Source: Actinomycetes bacterium (GTDB taxonomy: Bacteria; Actinomycetota; Thermoleophilia; BMS3ABIN01). From it: DNA of 64,000 bases. The notes beneath the pieces were generated by a model. That model did no database searches. It saw only the letters and a program-made list of their open reading frames with translations, and was not told where the DNA came from. The position numbers were made by a program, and so were the translations under genes. Below are positions 4,015 through 11,069 of this stretch, piece by piece (within the stretch, counting starts at the first letter, position 1; each line of letters opens with the position of its first letter). The stretch covers positions 128,743 through 192,742 of the forward strand of contig JAJYOG010000001.1 in the NCBI GenBank assembly GCA_021785935.1. The letters are read 5' to 3'.

Positions 4015-4590
4015 ATGATGGCTCGGTTAGGATTTGGAGCCGTGAAGACTAAACTTCTTCGAATATCGTCTTTCAACGATCTGAACGAGGCCTGGGCTCC
4101 GGAAAAGCTTGACATTTTTCTTAAGGGGCTGGCGAAAACGACCGCCGCTACTTTCGGCATTGAGGCACAATGGAGTGGACGGCCGCCGCCGCCTGCCTTC
4201 AGCTATGATCGCCGGCGCAGGCAATATGCAGCTTCAGGACTGTTGGCAGGGCTGGCGGCAACCAACACCGGCAACACACTCACCCTGGGAGTAACCGCGG
4301 TCGATCTCTTCATCCCCAAACTCAATTTCGTCTTCGGGGTAGCTGATCGAGACATGGGGGTGGCGATAATTTCCCTGCATCGCCTGTCACCGGAATTTTA
4401 CTCTAAGGAGCAGGACCAGAATCTGTTAAAGGAGAGGGCCGCCAAGGAGGCGATTCACGAAGTGGGCCATCTCCTCGGGCTCACTCATTGCGATGATGCG
4501 TCCTGCGTCATGCATTTCTCCAACGCCATCGGGAACACAGATATCAAGGGCCCCGGCTTCTGCGTCCACTGCGCCCAGCGGCTTATCTAG
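4015..4590 (+). CDS. amzA: archaemetzincin-family zinc metalloprotease
   Basis: HEVGHLLGLTHCDDASCVMHFSN...CVHC fits the archaemetzincin signature HExxHxxGxxxCxxxxCxM...CxxC. Confidence 0.8.
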   Translation: MMARLGFGAVKTKLLRISSFNDLNEAWAPEKLDIFLKGLAKTTAATFGIEAQWSGRPPPPAFSYDRRRRQYAASGLLAGLAATNTGNTLTLGVTAVDLFIPKLNFVFGVADRDMGVAIISLHRLSPEFYSKEQDQNLLKERAAKEAIHEVGHLLGLTHCDDASCVMHFSNAIGNTDIKGPGFCVHCAQRLI

Positions 4591-5441
4591 AAGAAATTCT
4601 CCAGTTCGCTGATGACGTCACCTTGTGAGAACGGCTGCTTGACCAACGGCTCCTGATTGGCGATCTCGGGCAGGCGCTCTTCAAGGGTCGGGCGGTCCGA
4701 ACGGTAGATAATTCCGGTGGGAATGCGGTCGCCGAACTCAAGCGCCAAACGCCAGGCGGCCTCGCGGTCACTGGGATCGTGTGATACACCAACCGGATTG
4801 CATCTTTGCTTGTACCACTGAAAGGTGTTGATCTTGTTATAGGTCACGCAAGGCTGGAGGATATCGAGGAGCGAAAAACCGCGGTGTTCAAGAGCAGCCC
4901 GCATCAGCTCCTTGAGCTGTTCCTGGTTTCCGGAGAAACCCCGGGCCACGAAACCCGCATCCATGGAAACAGCCAGGGCAACCGGGTTCAAGGGTTCATA
5001 AAGAACCCCGAACGGCTGGGTTCCGGTGACCATGCCCTCATCGGTTGTCGGCGAGGCCTGGCCCTTGGTCAGTCCGTATACCTGGTTGTCATGAACAAAA
5101 ACGGTGATGTTGAGATTGCGCCGCAAGGCATGCAGAAAGTGGTTGCCGCCCTCACCGTAACAATCGCCGTCACCGGCAACCGCGAGAACCCGCATTCCAT
5201 GATTGACAAGACGGATTGCCTGTGACACTGGTAGCGTCCGGCCGTGCAGGCCGTTAAATGTATTACATTTCGTGTAGTGAGGAAACTTGCCGGCCTGACC
5301 TATTCCCGAAACAATGATGAGCTCATGCGGCTCGATGCCCATTTCCACCATGGCCATCTTGAAGCTTCGCAGGATCTGCAGGTTGCCGCATCCCGGGCAC
5401 CAGGCCGGGTTTTGGCCGCGGAAATCTTCCAGCTCAGACAT
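4587..5441 (-). CDS. korB: 2-oxoacid:ferredoxin oxidoreductase, beta (TPP-binding) subunit
   Basis: AWCPGCGN and the TPP motif VAGDGDCYGEGGNH. ATG 5441 is preceded by GGGGAG and overlaps the korA stop by 8 nt. Confidence 0.85.
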   Translation of the reverse strand: MSELEDFRGQNPAWCPGCGNLQILRSFKMAMVEMGIEPHELIIVSGIGQAGKFPHYTKCNTFNGLHGRTLPVSQAIRLVNHGMRVLAVAGDGDCYGEGGNHFLHALRRNLNITVFVHDNQVYGLTKGQASPTTDEGMVTGTQPFGVLYEPLNPVALAVSMDAGFVARGFSGNQEQLKELMRAALEHRGFSLLDILQPCVTYNKINTFQWYKQRCNPVGVSHDPSDREAAWRLALEFGDRIPTGIIYRSDRPTLEERLPEIANQEPLVKQPFSQGDVISELENFF

Positions 5442-7200
5442 CGTTTCTCCCCGCGTCACCAAGATAATCGAGCAGTTCTTCCAGCATGAAGGGACGGCCG
5501 TCGAATTTGTTCAGATGCCGGTCGAAAACAAAACCGGTTTCCGCACGCACCAGTTGCGCGAATTGCGAGGTGGCGTTGTTCTCCACGCAGACCGTGCTTT
5601 TTGCTTTGCCGAGCACTTCCAGGAAGTCAGACTTTTCCGGGTCCGGGAAGGGAAATATCTCGCTGAAGTGTAGCATGGCAATACTGCTGGAATCGCCCAT
5701 GATATCAACGGCTTCCTTGATGACGCCATAAGTCGAGCCCCATCCGACAACGACAACTTCAGGATTTTCAGCGCCGTAATAAAGTGGCGGCGAGATTTCC
5801 TCCCGGATGAGCGGCATCTTTTTTAGCAACCGCTTTTCGACCATGAGCCTCCGGGTAAGCGCATCTTCGATCAGGTGGCCCTCTTCGTCATGCTCGTCAC
5901 TATCCGTGACGACCAGGTGTCGCGAGGCGCCCGGCTCGGCAAGAGGTGAGACTCCGGAATCCGTGTAGGCGTGCCGCTTGTAACTATCAAGCTTGGCAAG
6001 ATCGCCGGCGCGAAGGCGATAGTCATGATAGGGGATCTTCTCCGCGTCGAGGCCGTCGAGAGACCACTCGCTGTCCGCCAGATACTGGTCGGAGATGATA
6101 AAGGCAGGCACCTGGTATTTTTCAGCCAGGTCAAAAGCCTTGCCTGTGAGATGGAAAGCCTGCCCGGGGCTTCCCGGAGCCATAATAATTTTGGGGAACT
6201 CCCCATGGGCAGCGTGTAATACATAAAGGAGATCGGCCTGTTCTGTGCGCGTCGGCAGGCCTGTTGCCGGCGCCGGCCTCTGCCCTACGTAGATTACGAC
6301 CGGGGTCTCGGTCATGCCCGCAAGCGATACTCCTTCGACCATCAGCGCGAAACCGCCACCCGCGGTTCCGGTCATCGATCTGACTCCCGCGTAAGAAGCG
6401 CCAATCGCCATATTGATCGCAGCGATCTCATCCTCTGCCTGTTCGACAACCAGACTATGTTTCTTGCTTTGCGCGGCCATGAAGTTAAGTATCCCGGTGG
6501 AGGGAGTCATCGGGTAGGCCGTGTAGAACCGGCAACCACTCAGAAGTGCTCCCAGGCCGACAGCGTTGGTGCCATCCAGGAGCATGCGCCCTGGGGCGCC
6601 GCCGCCCGCAGGCGTCGCCCCCGCCTCTGCCGATCTGGGCTCGGGCACCGAAAAGGCGCATTGGCTACAATTTTCACGGGCGAATTGCGCGCCGGCGCTC
6701 GCGGCGGCGATATTCTGCTCCACCACCTCATGACCCTTGCGGGCAAAGACCTCATTGAGCAGCGCTTCCAGAATTTCCAGGCTCATGCCCAGCATGCCGA
6801 GCACGGCGCCCACGGCCACGGTGTTTTCCATCAGCCGGTTGCCAGCGGTATCCATGGCGATCTGACGGGAGGGAACATCGAGAAAGTTTTCGCCTTCATA
6901 CTTTTGTCTGATCGTCTCGGAATCGTAAACGATCATGCCGCCGGCGTTAAGCTCGTCGCGGTGCTCCTCAACGGTTGTTTTATCAAGGGACACCAATATG
7001 TCAACCAGGCTCCGGGAAGAGCTGACCGGCCGGTCCGATAATCGCACCTGATAATAGTTGTGTCCACCGCGGATACGCGACATGTAATCCTGGTGAGTAA
7101 AAACGTGGAAGCCGGCGCGGGTGAAAAGCTTGGCCAGCACGGCGCCGATAGTCTGCAGCCCCTGGCCTGCCTGCCCACCTATCCTGATCGTGTAATCCAT
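5434..7200 (-). CDS. korA: 2-oxoacid:ferredoxin oxidoreductase, fused gamma-alpha subunit
   Basis: The N-terminal IRIGGQAGQGLQTIG gamma-type domain is followed by the alpha domain (YPMTPST, GASYAGVRSMTGTAGGGFALM). 588 aa, upstream of the beta subunit. Confidence 0.85.
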   Translation of the reverse strand: MDYTIRIGGQAGQGLQTIGAVLAKLFTRAGFHVFTHQDYMSRIRGGHNYYQVRLSDRPVSSSRSLVDILVSLDKTTVEEHRDELNAGGMIVYDSETIRQKYEGENFLDVPSRQIAMDTAGNRLMENTVAVGAVLGMLGMSLEILEALLNEVFARKGHEVVEQNIAAASAGAQFARENCSQCAFSVPEPRSAEAGATPAGGGAPGRMLLDGTNAVGLGALLSGCRFYTAYPMTPSTGILNFMAAQSKKHSLVVEQAEDEIAAINMAIGASYAGVRSMTGTAGGGFALMVEGVSLAGMTETPVVIYVGQRPAPATGLPTRTEQADLLYVLHAAHGEFPKIIMAPGSPGQAFHLTGKAFDLAEKYQVPAFIISDQYLADSEWSLDGLDAEKIPYHDYRLRAGDLAKLDSYKRHAYTDSGVSPLAEPGASRHLVVTDSDEHDEEGHLIEDALTRRLMVEKRLLKKMPLIREEISPPLYYGAENPEVVVVGWGSTYGVIKEAVDIMGDSSSIAMLHFSEIFPFPDPEKSDFLEVLGKAKSTVCVENNATSQFAQLVRAETGFVFDRHLNKFDGRPFMLEELLDYLGDAGRNDV

Positions 7201-7315
7201 ATCCTGTTAATTTCCTGTTATTCATATGGTTAAACAAAACCAGCCTGGATGGCCGACGGTTTTGGTGTGTACGGCGTCCGCGACGACAGCGCAACCCCGG
7301 GATTGGCCGCCGGCC

Positions 7316-7565
7316 TTAGTGGGTAGCGCAGGCAACACAAGGATCGTACGCCCGCACCATGCGTGTCGAGATTGCCGGTGAGGCGCGCCAGGCGTAGTGC
7401 CTCAGGCAAGGCTTTATGAAGCTGTTGCCGGATATCGGCCATTGAGGCAACCAGGGGAGCCCGGCTAAAGCCTCCAATGCAGGTCGTGATCGGATGCACG
7501 GCCCGGCCGCCGATGGCGTAAACAATGTCGTTTCCAAGTTTCTTGAGCGCCAGAGCCGATGACAC
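7316..7565 (-). pseudogene. [NiFe]-hydrogenase large-subunit remnant (truncated, internally deleted, frameshifted)
   Basis: One frame reads LGNDIVYAIGGRAVHPITTCIGGFSRAP. Another frame ends RMVRAYDPCVACATH*, the C-terminal DPCxxCxxH nickel-site motif. Only about 80 codons remain of an expected 400 or more. Confidence 0.7.
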
Positions 7566-7747
7566 TTCCTGGGGATGATCCCTTGATCGAGGTGACGTTA
7601 TGAACCGATGGGCAGACGCCGCAGATTCGCGAAGTGATCGAGGGAGCATCGAAGAATTTGCGGCCGCGTCTTCACGGTCGCTTTCCGGCCATGGCTGACT
7701 TCTTGCCGCCGGAGCAATATTCAAAACCGAAAGCGGCGAAACCGTGA

Positions 7748-8302
7748 TCAGGAAAAAAGTTCGCTGTAACACACGAGCGGCTCGAAAGGCAGGCTGCCCT
7801 CCCGCTCGATGTTTTCGGCGCCGCCCTCTTCGCGGTCGACGAGAGTGTAAGCGACAACCGGTTCGAGACCTTCCACTTTGGCGCTATTGACGGCGGTTAT
7901 GATGGAGCCGCCACTGGTAACCACATCGTCGACAATGGCAACCCTGGAGCCACGTTCGATCGAGCCTTCGATCCATTTACTGGTACCGTGCTTCTTGGGC
8001 TCCTTGCGAACGATGAAACCTCGCACTGGATAACCCAGCTTCCAGCTGGAAGCTACCACTCCGGCGACGATGGGGTCGGCGCCGATAGCCAGGCCGCCGA
8101 TGGCGTCAATTGAAGCCGCACGAAGCTTTTCCACAAGAAGCTCGGAAGCAACCGCCAGCCCTTCGGGATCCAGAGTAACTCGCTTGCAGTCGAAATAATG
8201 GTCGCTGCGCTTGCCGGAAGTGAGGACGAAATCCCCCTTCATATAGGCTTTCTCCAGAAGGAGCTGGCGCAGCCTTTTTAAAAGTTGGTCGGTCTCGGTC
8301 AT
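7748..8302 (-). CDS. pyrE: orotate phosphoribosyltransferase
   Basis: FVLTSGKRSDHYFDCK and the PRPP-binding loop RVAIVDDVVTSGGS. Start placed at MTETDQ (ATG 8302). Confidence 0.9.
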   Translation of the reverse strand: MTETDQLLKRLRQLLLEKAYMKGDFVLTSGKRSDHYFDCKRVTLDPEGLAVASELLVEKLRAASIDAIGGLAIGADPIVAGVVASSWKLGYPVRGFIVRKEPKKHGTSKWIEGSIERGSRVAIVDDVVTSGGSIITAVNSAKVEGLEPVVAYTLVDREEGGAENIEREGSLPFEPLVCYSELFS

Positions 8303-8315
8303 GGAGCAGATATTA

Positions 8316-8650
8316 TCACACCATTCCTTGCCAGCGGTCGAACAGTTCCTGATATTCAGGTACAAGGGAACAGAATTTTTGAAACTTGCGTATCAAGTCG
8401 GGATAAGTCCTCCCCCGCGACATTAGTTCGCTGGCCGAGCTGACGTTGGGCTCATCTGTCGGTCCTCGGCAACCGTCACAAGGCACCCCAGCAGAGGGGC
8501 AGACAACACCACAACCCCGCCCGGGTAATGGCGCCCAGACAGGGAAGGCCCTGTAGTGGCAGGCAGGGATTTTCCAATACTTTGCACTCCACATGTTGCG
8601 ACGCCGGCACTCCCCCAAATGAGGAACAACTTCCCAGCGATGCCAATATC
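8316..8650 (-). pseudogene. [NiFe]-hydrogenase small (delta) subunit remnant, N-terminally deleted and frameshifted
   Basis: ILASLGSCSSFGGVPA (GxCxxxGG small-subunit motif) in one frame at 8602-8649. GCGVVCPSAGVPCDGCRGPTDE (distal cluster cysteines) in another frame at 8316-8516. Confidence 0.6.
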
Positions 8651-8657
8651 CTGGAAC

Positions 8658-9319
8658 GCCAAATCCGCAGCGCATCTGGCGTTCCAGGGATACAAAGACC
8701 CTCGAGTCTTCGAACCCGAGTTCCTTTAGGCGGACAAGCGCAAAACGGAACATTACCGGCGGACCACACATCAGCACCGATGTGCCTTCCGGCTTGAGGC
8801 TGATTTCATCAAAAAGAGAGGTGATGAGACCGGTGTTCCCGCTCCAGCCCGGCGGCGCCTCATCGACAATGGTTTCGACCCCGCCCTGCCAGCTCCAGGT
8901 TTCATATTCATCAGTGAATAAAAGCAGCTCCGGATTTCTGGCTCCGTGGAGTATAGTCAGCTCGCCGAATTCATCGTTGAGGCAGACGGCGCAATCTATC
9001 GCACTTTTCAGGGGAGCCAGCCCGATGCCCCCGGCGACAAAGACAGGTTCTGCCCAGCCATGTCGGTCAGGGGGAAGCCCTGGCCGTATGGCCCGCGCAC
9101 CCAGACGGAAGCTCCCGGCAGCAAACGCTGCATGGCGCTGGTGAGGTTGCCGGCATCGCGCACGCAAAGCTCAAAACTGCCTTTTTGCGTTGGCGTCGAG
9201 CAGATTGATATGGGCGCCTCCCCGATACCGAGTAACGACACCTGCATGAATTGGCCGCTGCAAAAAGAAAATTCATCCCGAATTTGCGGTTTTTTAACCG
9301 GCTGTATTTCGTTATTCAA
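8658..9319 (-). pseudogene. hydrogenase gamma subunit (FAD/NAD-binding reductase) remnant with a 1-nt frameshift, C-terminus lost
   Basis: SGQFMQVSLLGIGEAPISICS...VWVRGPYGQGFPL in one frame continues as VFVAGGIGLAPLKSAI...LMCGPPVMF...ERQMRCGFG in another. The shift is near 9043-9047 (ctgtc where ctggtc is expected). The 2Fe-2S tail is missing. Confidence 0.65.
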
Positions 9320-9355
9320 GGCTGGCTGCCTCCCGGCCTTTTTTTTGTCGGAGAG

Positions 9356-9810
9356 CTACAGCACCTCGTCAATTACATGGCGCGGGTTGATATCGACGGG
9401 GCAGAAATGGAAACAGGCGCCGCAGCCCGTACAGCCGGGCTGTCCAAAGGTATCCTGTGTGCGCATGAATTTGTGTGAAAATCGATTCCCGAATGTGAGC
9501 TTGCGTCCTGCCTTGCTGCCCGCGAACAGGCGAGGGGTTTCTTCATCCAGATCGAGAAAGAGGTCAAAATTCCCGCGATCACAGTGTAGTCGGCAGTCAG
9601 CTCCAGCAGCCAACTCTTTAGATCCGGGTTCTCCTCCCAGTCCGAAGCAGGAGCTTCACCGGCATCGCTTTTTTCACTGCTGTTGGCGGCCATCATCACT
9701 CCGTTATTGGATAAAAACGTTTGCGGCAAATGCCGCTGAACGCATATTCCCACAATCGCCGGCAGGAAAACGGCGGATCTTGGGAAATACTTGAATGACA
9801 GGAAGGCCAC
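9356..9810 (-). pseudogene. hydrogenase beta (Fe-S) subunit remnant, 5' part deleted
   Basis: C-terminal CTGCGACFHFCPVDI ferredoxin-type CxxCxxCxxxCP motif. Only 85-145 codons are left, split over two frames. It sits first in a beta-gamma-delta-alpha order. Confidence 0.5.
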
Positions 9811-9819
9811 AATACGGAG

Positions 9820-10023
9820 GTGCAGATGAAAGTCGATGAAGCCAAGCGTGACCGCGCCACGATCATGGCCGCGGTGCAGATTATATTCGGCATCATCATC
9901 TTTACGAGTGCTTGGTGGCTATCCGCGGAACAGGCCAAGGGGACGGCGCTCTACATCTTCGGTTTTATCACAGTGCTTCTGGGGATAGGAACCGGTATAT
10001 TCCTTTCTGCCCGGCGAGCCTAA
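9820..10023 (+). CDS. small two-helix membrane protein, unknown function
   Basis: ATG preceded by GGAGGTG. 67 aa with two hydrophobic helices. Followed by a terminator hairpin. Confidence 0.45.
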   Translation: MQMKVDEAKRDRATIMAAVQIIFGIIIFTSAWWLSAEQAKGTALYIFGFITVLLGIGTGIFLSARRA

Positions 10024-10028
10024 GCTAC

Positions 10029-10060
10029 AAAAAAACACCGTTCCTGGGAACGGTGTTTTC
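10029..10060. terminator. bidirectional intrinsic terminator
   Basis: A7 run, then a 9-10 bp stem acaccgttcc/ggaacggtgt, then a T4 run. Lies between the convergent genes 9820-10023 (+) and 10242-11069 (-). Confidence 0.55.
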
Positions 10061-10241
10061 AACCTACCTGCTGGAGCAAACAGCTAACTGAGGCTCCAGG
10101 CTCTAAATCACATTGCATAGCGCCTCCTTCTCGGACTCAACCTCCTCTAATTTAAATCTACCCGTTTCCCCCGGGTTGAATCGTCTGGCCGTCGTCGTTG
10201 GGCCGCGGGCATCGAACACCCGGATCTGATCAGGCCGGCGT

Positions 10242-11069
10242 TCAATTCGCATAACAGTAAACGCAGGCCTCGCCGGGGCAGCGTTGCGTATAGCTGCCGA
10301 TGTCAACACTTTTTGTGCAGGCGCATTCAGTCCGCTGCGTGGCATCTTTGGCTGCAGGGGCCGCAGCGCCATCCCCTCGGAGACGATCAAGCCGGGCCGC
10401 ATCGACACAGCGACCACGGCCGACCCCGGCAACCGCCGTCCAGCGTTCACAAGCGCAGCTGCATAGCTCAAAACCGAGGCAATCGGCCGTCTTCGAGAGC
10501 GCGGCCACAGCCTCCATTTTTTCTTCAGCTGACAGATCCACAAAAGGGAGCCCGGCCCTTAACGAGCGGCGCCGGCTTTTTTGGTACCACTGTGTAAAGG
10601 AAAAGCTACATGTTTTCACGCCGGTTTCTGCGATTACCGTTGCAATCTCCTCGAACTGGCTCAGGTTCGATTGGGCAACACCACCATCTATCCAGTGCAC
10701 GATGGGATCAAAACGCCAGTTAACCCGGGCTGCCCCAAATGCCTTTGCCAGGCTCCGCATCTGGTTCGCAGCCTGTTCCCAGGCCGGTATCTCCCTTTCC
10801 CAAGGCGAGCCGCCGAGACCGGTGACAGTAAAGTGAAAGAAGGGGTTCAGTTGGCTTAATTGCCTGGAAAGCACCCTATTTTCTATCAGATGGCCATAAT
10901 CTTTCGACCAAAGAACGATCGAATGCACATCATCGGGCCGCAAGGAAACCTGGTGAAGGCCGCCCCTGGGAGAGCGGTACTCAACTGCTCCAGTGGCAAG
11001 GCATTCACTGAGCCAATCCGGGTAACAGCGGGGGATGTCAGTCCTTCGTGAGCAGCTGATAACGTTCAT
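10242..11069 (-). CDS. DUF1848-family protein (Cys-rich C-terminus)
   Basis: N-terminal ISCSRRTDIPRCYPDWL and a C-terminal cysteine cluster (CSCACERW...CACTKS...CPGEACVYCYAN), typical of DUF1848. Confidence 0.7.
   Translation of the reverse strand: MNVISCSRRTDIPRCYPDWLSECLATGAVEYRSPRGGLHQVSLRPDDVHSIVLWSKDYGHLIENRVLSRQLSQLNPFFHFTVTGLGGSPWEREIPAWEQAANQMRSLAKAFGAARVNWRFDPIVHWIDGGVAQSNLSQFEEIATVIAETGVKTCSFSFTQWYQKSRRRSLRAGLPFVDLSAEEKMEAVAALSKTADCLGFELCSCACERWTAVAGVGRGRCVDAARLDRLRGDGAAAPAAKDATQRTECACTKSVDIGSYTQRCPGEACVYCYAN

Follow-up and report, generated by a model that had tools for sequence, protein, structure and literature searches.

Why does an intact pyrimidine biosynthesis gene lie in the middle of a broken hydrogenase operon? 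The question is raised by a stretch of 64,000 nucleotides (nt), hereafter the window, from an Actinomycetes bacterium of the class Thermoleophilia (assembly GCA_021785935.1, contig JAJYOG010000001.1, positions 128,743 to 192,742). Its genome, G000, is a metagenome-assembled genome (MAG) of 47 contigs that is 78.6% complete. On the minus strand of the window, pyrE stands among short pieces of four [NiFe]-hydrogenase genes. A reading of the letters alone (the original prediction) had taken these pieces for a decaying group-3b-like operon and for a sign that H2 metabolism was recently lost. We are highly confident that the locus is a dead orthologue of the hyhB-hyhG-hyhS-pyrE-hyhL operon of its relatives, removed by medium-sized deletions that spared pyrE, in an organism that kept its group-1 hydrogenase.

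How can such short fragments be assigned to genes? A DNA search of 30 relatives gave collinear matches in several genomes of the same genus and the same family. Two genomes of the same genus, G001 and G005, have the operon intact, with beta of 368/350 amino acids (aa), gamma of 285/292, delta of 263/274, pyrE of 184 and alpha of 418/433, followed by korA. Lesions were mapped by tblastn with the G001 proteins, by blastn, and by global alignment with cheap gap extension against both references, which are only ~77% identical to the window in nucleotide alignment. The fragments map collinearly onto the intact operons in tblastn and blastn, the main ones with tblastn E-values of 1e-9 to 1e-70. Full-length subunits aligned to the locus much as the original prediction foresaw, in order and with deletions and frameshifts that could be placed. 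The genes are assigned as follows, all on the minus strand:

7316-9696, minus strand: beta-gamma-delta-pyrE-alpha hydrogenase remnants (mapping against intact same-genus orthologues)
9347-9696, minus strand: hyhB/hydB (beta, Fe-S subunit) pseudogene (tblastn against G001 beta; block alignment against G001 and G005; Pfam)
8658-9325, minus strand: hyhG/hydG (gamma, FAD/NAD(P) subunit) pseudogene (tblastn, 144 and 209 bits in two frames; Pfam)
8316-8650, minus strand: hyhS/hydD (delta, small subunit) pseudogene (tblastn; block alignment; blastn block 8592-7746, 77% identity, single gap)
7748-8302, minus strand: pyrE (orotate phosphoribosyltransferase), intact, 184 aa (TIGR00336)
7316-7668, minus strand: hyhL/hydA (alpha, [NiFe] large subunit) pseudogene in three frames (Pfam; tblastn; block alignment against two references)

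Across the four hydrogenase genes we count eight deletions (~70-614 nt) and two 1-nt frameshifts, listed here in the direction of transcription:

D1, 9576/9575: 364-nt deletion in beta; frame shifted
D2, between 9543 and 9490: ~330-390-nt deletion in beta; CxxCxxCxxxCP Fe-S region gone
D3, 9347-9283: ~70-140-nt deletion of the beta/gamma junction and the gamma 5' end
fs1, 9044/9043: 1-nt deletion in gamma, seen against both references
D4, 8662-8646: 363-378-nt deletion; last 32 codons of gamma and first ~87 of delta gone
D5, 8594/8593: 201-nt deletion, in frame, delta aa 106-170
fs2, 8518: 1-nt insertion in delta; frame shifted
D6, pyrE stop to alpha codon 45: ~199-nt deletion of intergenic DNA and alpha aa 1-44
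D7, 7581/7580: 158-nt deletion in alpha
D8, 7364/7363: 614-nt deletion in alpha

Together, ~2.36 kb of the ~4.2 kb of hydrogenase DNA is missing, each of the four genes has at least two disabling lesions, and no translatable subunit is left. The 201, 158 and 614 nt deletions, the 1-nt deletion and the 1-nt insertion have the same sizes whether measured against G001 or G005. Lesions already seen from the sequence include a 1-nt deletion in gamma near 9045 and the loss of the delta N-terminus with a frameshift, and the alignments agree on these. The internal deletions of beta and delta, found by block alignment, come in addition.

What is left of the subunits? Beta keeps its start codons ATGATG (9696-9691) and aa ~2-37, a short piece after D1 (GNFDLFLDLD...PRLFAGSKAGRKL), and its C-terminal 46 aa (RFSHKFMR...GCTGCGACFHFCP...) with the stop; GCTGCGACFHFCP lies in the open reading frame (ORF) 9356-9613. 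The start and first ~30-45 aa of gamma are lost or unrecognisable, aa ~46-253 are present, and the last 32 aa are deleted together with most of the 2Fe-2S cysteines; ERQMRCGFG ends gamma near 8660. Delta keeps aa ~88-105 (LASLGSCSSFGGVPA) and aa 189-263 with the TGA stop (8318-8316), the latter contiguous with pyrE, and its motifs GSCSSFGG and CPSAGVPCDGCRGP stand in different frames. We took a tblastn match of delta aa 68-80 to 8691-8655 to be spurious, because this stretch consists of gamma coding sequence and inverted-repeat filler. Alpha keeps aa 45-73 with the N-terminal Ni-binding motif RICGVCPSVH (RGRKFFDAPSITSRICGVCPSVHNVTSIK) at 7668-7582, aa 127-198 with GGRAVHP at 7580-7365, and the last ~17 aa with the stop at 7363-7316, including DPCVACATH at 7345-7319. 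Every motif quoted in the original prediction (GCTGCGACFHFCP, ERQMRCGFG, GSCSSFGG, CPSAGVPCDGCRGP, GGRAVHP and DPCVACATH) is found on the minus strand. It rightly placed GGRAVHP and DPCVACATH in different frames, and was mistaken in allowing alpha nothing else, since RICGVCPSVH survives.

The fragments occupy the orthologous position, show significant similarity to the intact genes and carry frame-disrupting lesions, between the same flanks (smallTM/DUF1848 and korAB) as in the intact loci. From korA (5434-7200, minus strand) to the small membrane-protein gene (9820-10023, plus strand), the ORF list has no long hydrogenase ORF, only short or chimeric ones. Pfam finds Fer4_22 in ORF 9356-9613 (E=2.5e-7), FAD_binding_6 in 9008-9319, NAD_binding_1 in 8316-9167, a weak Oxidored_q6 in 8476-8769, Pribosyltran in 7748-8365, and, in 7316-7537, a weak NiFeSe_Hases match to the last 17 positions (profile 492-508). 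A whole-genome PF00374 scan adds profile positions 8-36 at 7582-7668.

Which hydrogenase was this? Judged by homology, the remnants are those of a group-3b, sulfhydrogenase-type beta-gamma-delta-alpha operon that is pseudogenised and not functional, and the best matches of the intact orthologues bear out the original prediction on this point. In NCBIfam the G001 proteins best match ShyA/HydA (2.7e-78, against 4e-45 for VhuA and 3e-36 for FrhA), ShyD/HydD (~1e-48), HydG (7e-67) and HydB (2e-47). The best Protein Data Bank (PDB) matches, at ~1e-70, are sulfhydrogenase I alpha (9e1j, 9e15, 9nez) and the Thermococcus kodakarensis cytosolic NiFe-hydrogenase (5yxy), and the ranking runs from sulfhydrogenase I (1.5e-70) to MvhA (3e-53) and the NAD-reducing HoxH (1e-37). 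The NCBIfam scores are far under the equivalog cut-offs (~260 versus 700-880 bits) and therefore point to a distant bacterial branch; we regard the label group-3b-like as justified despite this.

The sulfhydrogenase I operons of Pyrococcus furiosus and T. kodakarensis (HydB-G-D-A) have the same subunit order, which is collinear in the window fragments and intact, with pyrE interposed, in G001, G004, G005, G006, G013 and G014. Intact sister orthologues (368/285/263/418 aa) are nearly the size of the archaeal subunits and share with them the L1 RxCGxCxxxH and L2 DPCxxCxxH motifs, the FAD and NAD(P) domains of gamma and the Fe-S clusters of beta. Both Ni-Fe ligand motifs are present in the window, in different frames and separated by deletions. 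Unlike the archaeal enzyme, the window copy is dead, without any intact subunit. Moreover, pyrE between delta and alpha belongs to the operon of this family only; the archaeal operons and those of other Thermoleophilia families are without it.

Did the organism lose H2 metabolism along with this operon? The original prediction said so, and here the rest of the genome contradicts it:

G000 C42:121738-125783, ~3-7 kb before the start of the window: complete cluster of a group-1 [NiFeSe] uptake hydrogenase (PF00374 and gene cluster)

Besides a small subunit whose Tat signal reads SRRDFLK, this cluster encodes a large subunit, a cytochrome b and a maturation protease. The large subunit (PF00374, 501 bits) has one in-frame TGA, in ...TVHTFDP*MACAVH, a DPUxxCxxH motif, and therefore appears to be a selenocysteine-containing [NiFeSe] enzyme. 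A tRNA-Sec gene (tRNA-SeC) is present at C29:121444-121539. The hyp maturation genes, to be sought elsewhere in the genome according to the original prediction, lie intact on C7:13222-18995 in the order hypA, hypB, hypF, hypC, hypD, hypE. By this gene content, H2 metabolism is kept in G000. A ~520-aa group-1 large subunit is open in 21 of 24 family genomes, which makes it the hydrogenase that the group conserves, with the 3b enzyme as the dispensable one. A [NiFeSe] enzyme in a MAG of the Thermoleophilia (Actinomycetota) is mildly unusual.

On C16:46132-51371, G000 has paralogues of beta and gamma (364 and 330 aa, with 27% and 35% identity to the G001 proteins). They adjoin a Cys-rich 309-aa protein and a 680-aa HdrA-like protein, without hydrogenase catalytic subunits. 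We rejected them as a second hydrogenase, given the HdrA-like neighbour and the lack of a large or small subunit; the module looks like an Hdr/Flx- or AsrAB-like electron-transfer module.

How widespread is the loss? In the family, 24 species-level genomes were compared: seven (G001, G004, G005, G006, G013, G014 and G017) have an intact 3b large subunit, G035 has a contig-end fragment of it, G000 alone has remnants, and 15 lack it; relatives carry only one 3b copy each. The genes downstream of the operon are the following:

5434-7200, minus strand: korA, 2-oxoacid:ferredoxin oxidoreductase, intact (ORF; Pfam on identical proteins)
4587-5462, minus strand: korB, 2-oxoacid:ferredoxin oxidoreductase, intact (ORF; Pfam on identical proteins)

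These two genes (Pfam POR, POR_N, TPP_enzyme_C and PFO_beta_C in the identical proteins) are conserved operon neighbours, with synteny in eight relatives. The comparison with sister genomes, another step named in the original prediction, yielded both intact loci (G001, G005) and clean ones (G002, G003). G002 and G003, of the same genus, have the same flanks, korB-korA-pyrE-smallTM-DUF1848-CsoR-PBP1A, with no recognisable hydrogenase remnant in spacers of only ~130-240 nt. In a maximum-likelihood tree of korA, pyrE and korB, G000 is sister to the intact clade (support 84) and G002 and G003 group together apart from it (support 83), which makes the two losses in the genus look independent. Further losses in other genera are implied. 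Lineage-specific loss of [NiFe]-hydrogenases is reported for other Actinomycetota, such as the loss of Hup with genome reduction in Frankia (PMC11879354). Both cases show a hydrogenase that is patchy among close relatives, which is explained by repeated loss. The present case differs in that the enzyme is a cytosolic group 3b hydrogenase rather than an uptake Hup, a multi-deletion intermediate has survived, and the operon encloses an essential gene unrelated to it.

When did the operon die? Over 441 alignable remnant codons, dN/dS is 0.108 between G000 and G001 and 0.084 between G000 and G005, against 0.089 for the intact pair G001 and G005. Remnant values of ~0.1, as between intact orthologues, speak for the recent loss of the 3b operon that had been predicted. 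Because the remnants still carry the purifying-selection signature of their functional past, we infer that inactivation is young relative to the species split and that decay proceeded by deletion rather than substitution. A dN/dS test, with dS saturated, gave no clear excess of relaxed selection on the G000 branch. Metagenome contigs scanned with the gamma fragment, in search of a closer relative with an intact operon, gave no match above 79% identity, and the decay cannot be dated more finely.

How were the genes removed? In bacteria, dead genes are removed mainly by deletions rather than point substitutions, and essential neighbours and their regulatory DNA are spared. The locus in G000 follows the same principle, as one well-resolved instance, with three stages (intact, decaying and clean) to be seen within one genus. 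At D1, D5, D7 and D8 the intact orthologues have direct matches of 3-7 nt at both breakpoints. One junction carries added sequence:

8646-8662, minus strand: D4 junction, gamma 3' region fused to delta aa ~88 (inverted-repeat search; three-way comparison; block alignment)

The orthologues lack an 8-nt filler, GTTCCAGG, that stands at this junction and is the reverse complement of CCTGGAAC ~30 nt upstream. As its last 8 nt, the filler completes a 19-nt inverted repeat (8650-8668/8670-8688; 89% complementary, 1-nt spacer), consistent with templating by a template switch. A repeat search of the region found no long repeats flanking the deletions. Slippage or template switching may have been at work. 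The filler and the microhomologies suggest this mechanism and do not prove it, because the references are only ~77% identical.

Within the remnant of the beta/gamma junction there is a plus-strand terminator-like hairpin with a T-run at 9318-9340 (minus-strand A-run gacaaaaaaaaggccgggaggcagccagcctt). The segment has no counterpart in G001 or G005, the window being 41-63 nt longer here.

What kept pyrE alive? Its product matches TIGR00336 with 127.7 bits (cut-off 106.8) over profile positions 6-172 of 173 and is 86% identical in aa to G001 PyrE over its full length (tblastn). The gene has a dN/dS of 0.07-0.09 and is single-copy in the assembly (one tblastn match), with pyrF present elsewhere in the genome. 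A consensus scan places a promoter-like element directly before it:

8312-8341, minus strand: promoter-like TCGACC-18-(TG)GATAAT (consensus scan; overlaps the stop codon of delta, its end 9 nt from the pyrE ATG)

Such an element would possibly give an mRNA with a very short leader or none. The upstream sequences of 11 genomes show that TGTGATA(A/G)TATC, an extended -10-like motif (window 8303-8320, minus strand), precedes pyrE in most relatives. It does so also in the hydrogenase-less G002, G003 and G008; the window copy overlaps the stop codon of delta. Between the motif and the current ATG, G002 and G003 have a vestigial ATGAC and ~30 additional nt. An Rfam scan of 7000-10300 matched no RNA family and therefore no PyrR-type leader. 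From these comparisons, pyrE is probably transcribed from a promoter of its own that overlaps the end of delta; this would account for the delta 3' end being better preserved than any other remnant.

Was pyrE inserted, or was it always there? In the window alone, alpha fragments come directly after pyrE and most of alpha is gone. The original prediction, correct in finding pyrE intact at 7748-8302, set it in place of the first ~300 codons of alpha and offered insertion and retention alike. That pyrE entered, or replaced, the 5' two-thirds of alpha during decay has next to no probability. All alpha remnants, the N-terminal motif included, are found downstream of pyrE. In blastn against G001, one alignment block of 847 nt, interrupted by a single gap, takes in both the delta 3' end and pyrE. 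Intact operons of three genera have the order delta-pyrE-alpha with a full-length alpha after pyrE, by which insertion is already refuted. Retention is the half of the claim that stands: since every intact family locus (7/7) has pyrE between delta and alpha, we read it as a retained ancestral resident, neither insert nor replacement. The arrangement occurs in none of 23 group-3b-like loci from other families of the class, which have gamma-delta-alpha, and pyrE within a 3b operon is a family-specific marker. In the literature we found no paper on pyrE inside a 3b hydrogenase operon, nor on 3b decay in Thermoleophilia.

Two further explanations would deny that the operon is dead. The lesions could be errors of a metagenome assembler, or of a collapsed or chimeric contig, over a full-length operon; a MAG in 47 contigs invites the suspicion, and the insertion at 8518 falls within a G-run. 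We think this very improbable. A megahit (k141) contig from the European Nucleotide Archive (ENA; ERZ27233560, 164.6 kb) and a Logan contig (SRR13170412, 26.3 kb), found by exact look-up of the korA and PyrE sequences, come from different assemblers and are identical over 13,200 nt around the locus, with 0 mismatches. K-mer collapse does not typically leave eight separate deletions of 70-614 nt whose microhomologies are only 3-7 nt long; there are no long flanking repeats, the flanking synteny is exactly that of relatives, and a sister lineage shows the completed deletion. Slightly less probable still is that the remnants were kept as a new small redox protein, either the 85-aa beta ORF 9356-9613 or a 283-aa chimeric ORF (8316-9167) that joins the gamma NAD-binding domain, an out-of-frame linker and the Cys-rich C-terminal tail of delta. 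Both are open, with Fer4 and NAD_binding_1 matches, and remnant dN/dS is low. This low value, however, is inherited from the functional past and was obtained over saturated dS. The 283-aa ORF starts out of frame, has neither the FAD domain nor the 2Fe-2S cysteines, and has ~50 aa of its delta part translated from the wrong frame; it went uncalled by the gene callers on the two public contigs, and no relative has such a fusion.

Several points tell against a dead, recently lost operon or against parts of that account. The agreement of the assemblers is good support at the assembly level and not final proof, as the reads may be the same. An intact second 3b copy elsewhere in G000 is possible in a MAG that is 78.6% complete. 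With dS >1 throughout and synonymous sites saturated, the loss is recent only relative to the species split. Microhomologies were taken from orthologues of 77% identity, and chance alone can produce matches so short. For the promoter there is just a consensus match, from a scan that found 3 against 1.5 expected in shuffles.

On balance, deletional decay of the ancestral operon is the account that we favor. Selection on the 3b NAD(P)-linked cytosolic hydrogenase was probably relaxed recently in the G000 lineage. Its genes are being removed through eight medium-sized deletions, of which several fall at microhomologies of 3-7 nt and one carries an 8-nt filler that looks templated, with two 1-nt indels adding to the decay. 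Single-copy pyrE, needed for de novo pyrimidine synthesis, is kept by purifying selection. The end state can be seen in the sister species G002 and G003, in which only smallTM-pyrE-korA is left, and by its gene content the cell still uses H2 through the membrane-bound group-1 [NiFeSe] hydrogenase and the hyp maturation genes.

Is the arrangement hyhB-G-S-pyrE-L more than an accident? The pyrE promoter may lie in the last codons of the small-subunit gene, and the regulatory needs of pyrE and korA may dictate which pieces survive (delta 3' end, alpha 3' end and beta 5' end). We hold the idea tentatively and lean somewhat against it. If it were true, the intact, decaying and clean loci of one genus would form a natural time series, in which deletion sizes, microhomology use and template-switch fillers could be measured in uncultured subsurface Actinomycetota.

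The case is a clean and instructive but conceptually ordinary example of deletional operon decay, and current understanding is not overturned by it; only the family-specific pyrE in the operon and the [NiFeSe] enzyme of a Thermoleophilia genome are mildly unusual. It offers a three-stage picture (intact, half-deleted and clean) of how an operon disappears from around an essential gene within it. In one genus the operon was apparently lost independently at least twice, and decay in this lineage went mainly by 0.1-0.6-kb deletions rather than point mutation. Pipelines that score domains (NiFe large subunit, Fer4, NAD_binding) might list a bidirectional NAD(P)-linked hydrogenase for this MAG, wrongly, since none is present. 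The organism should still be scored as an H2 oxidiser, because the group-1 [NiFeSe] enzyme is there.

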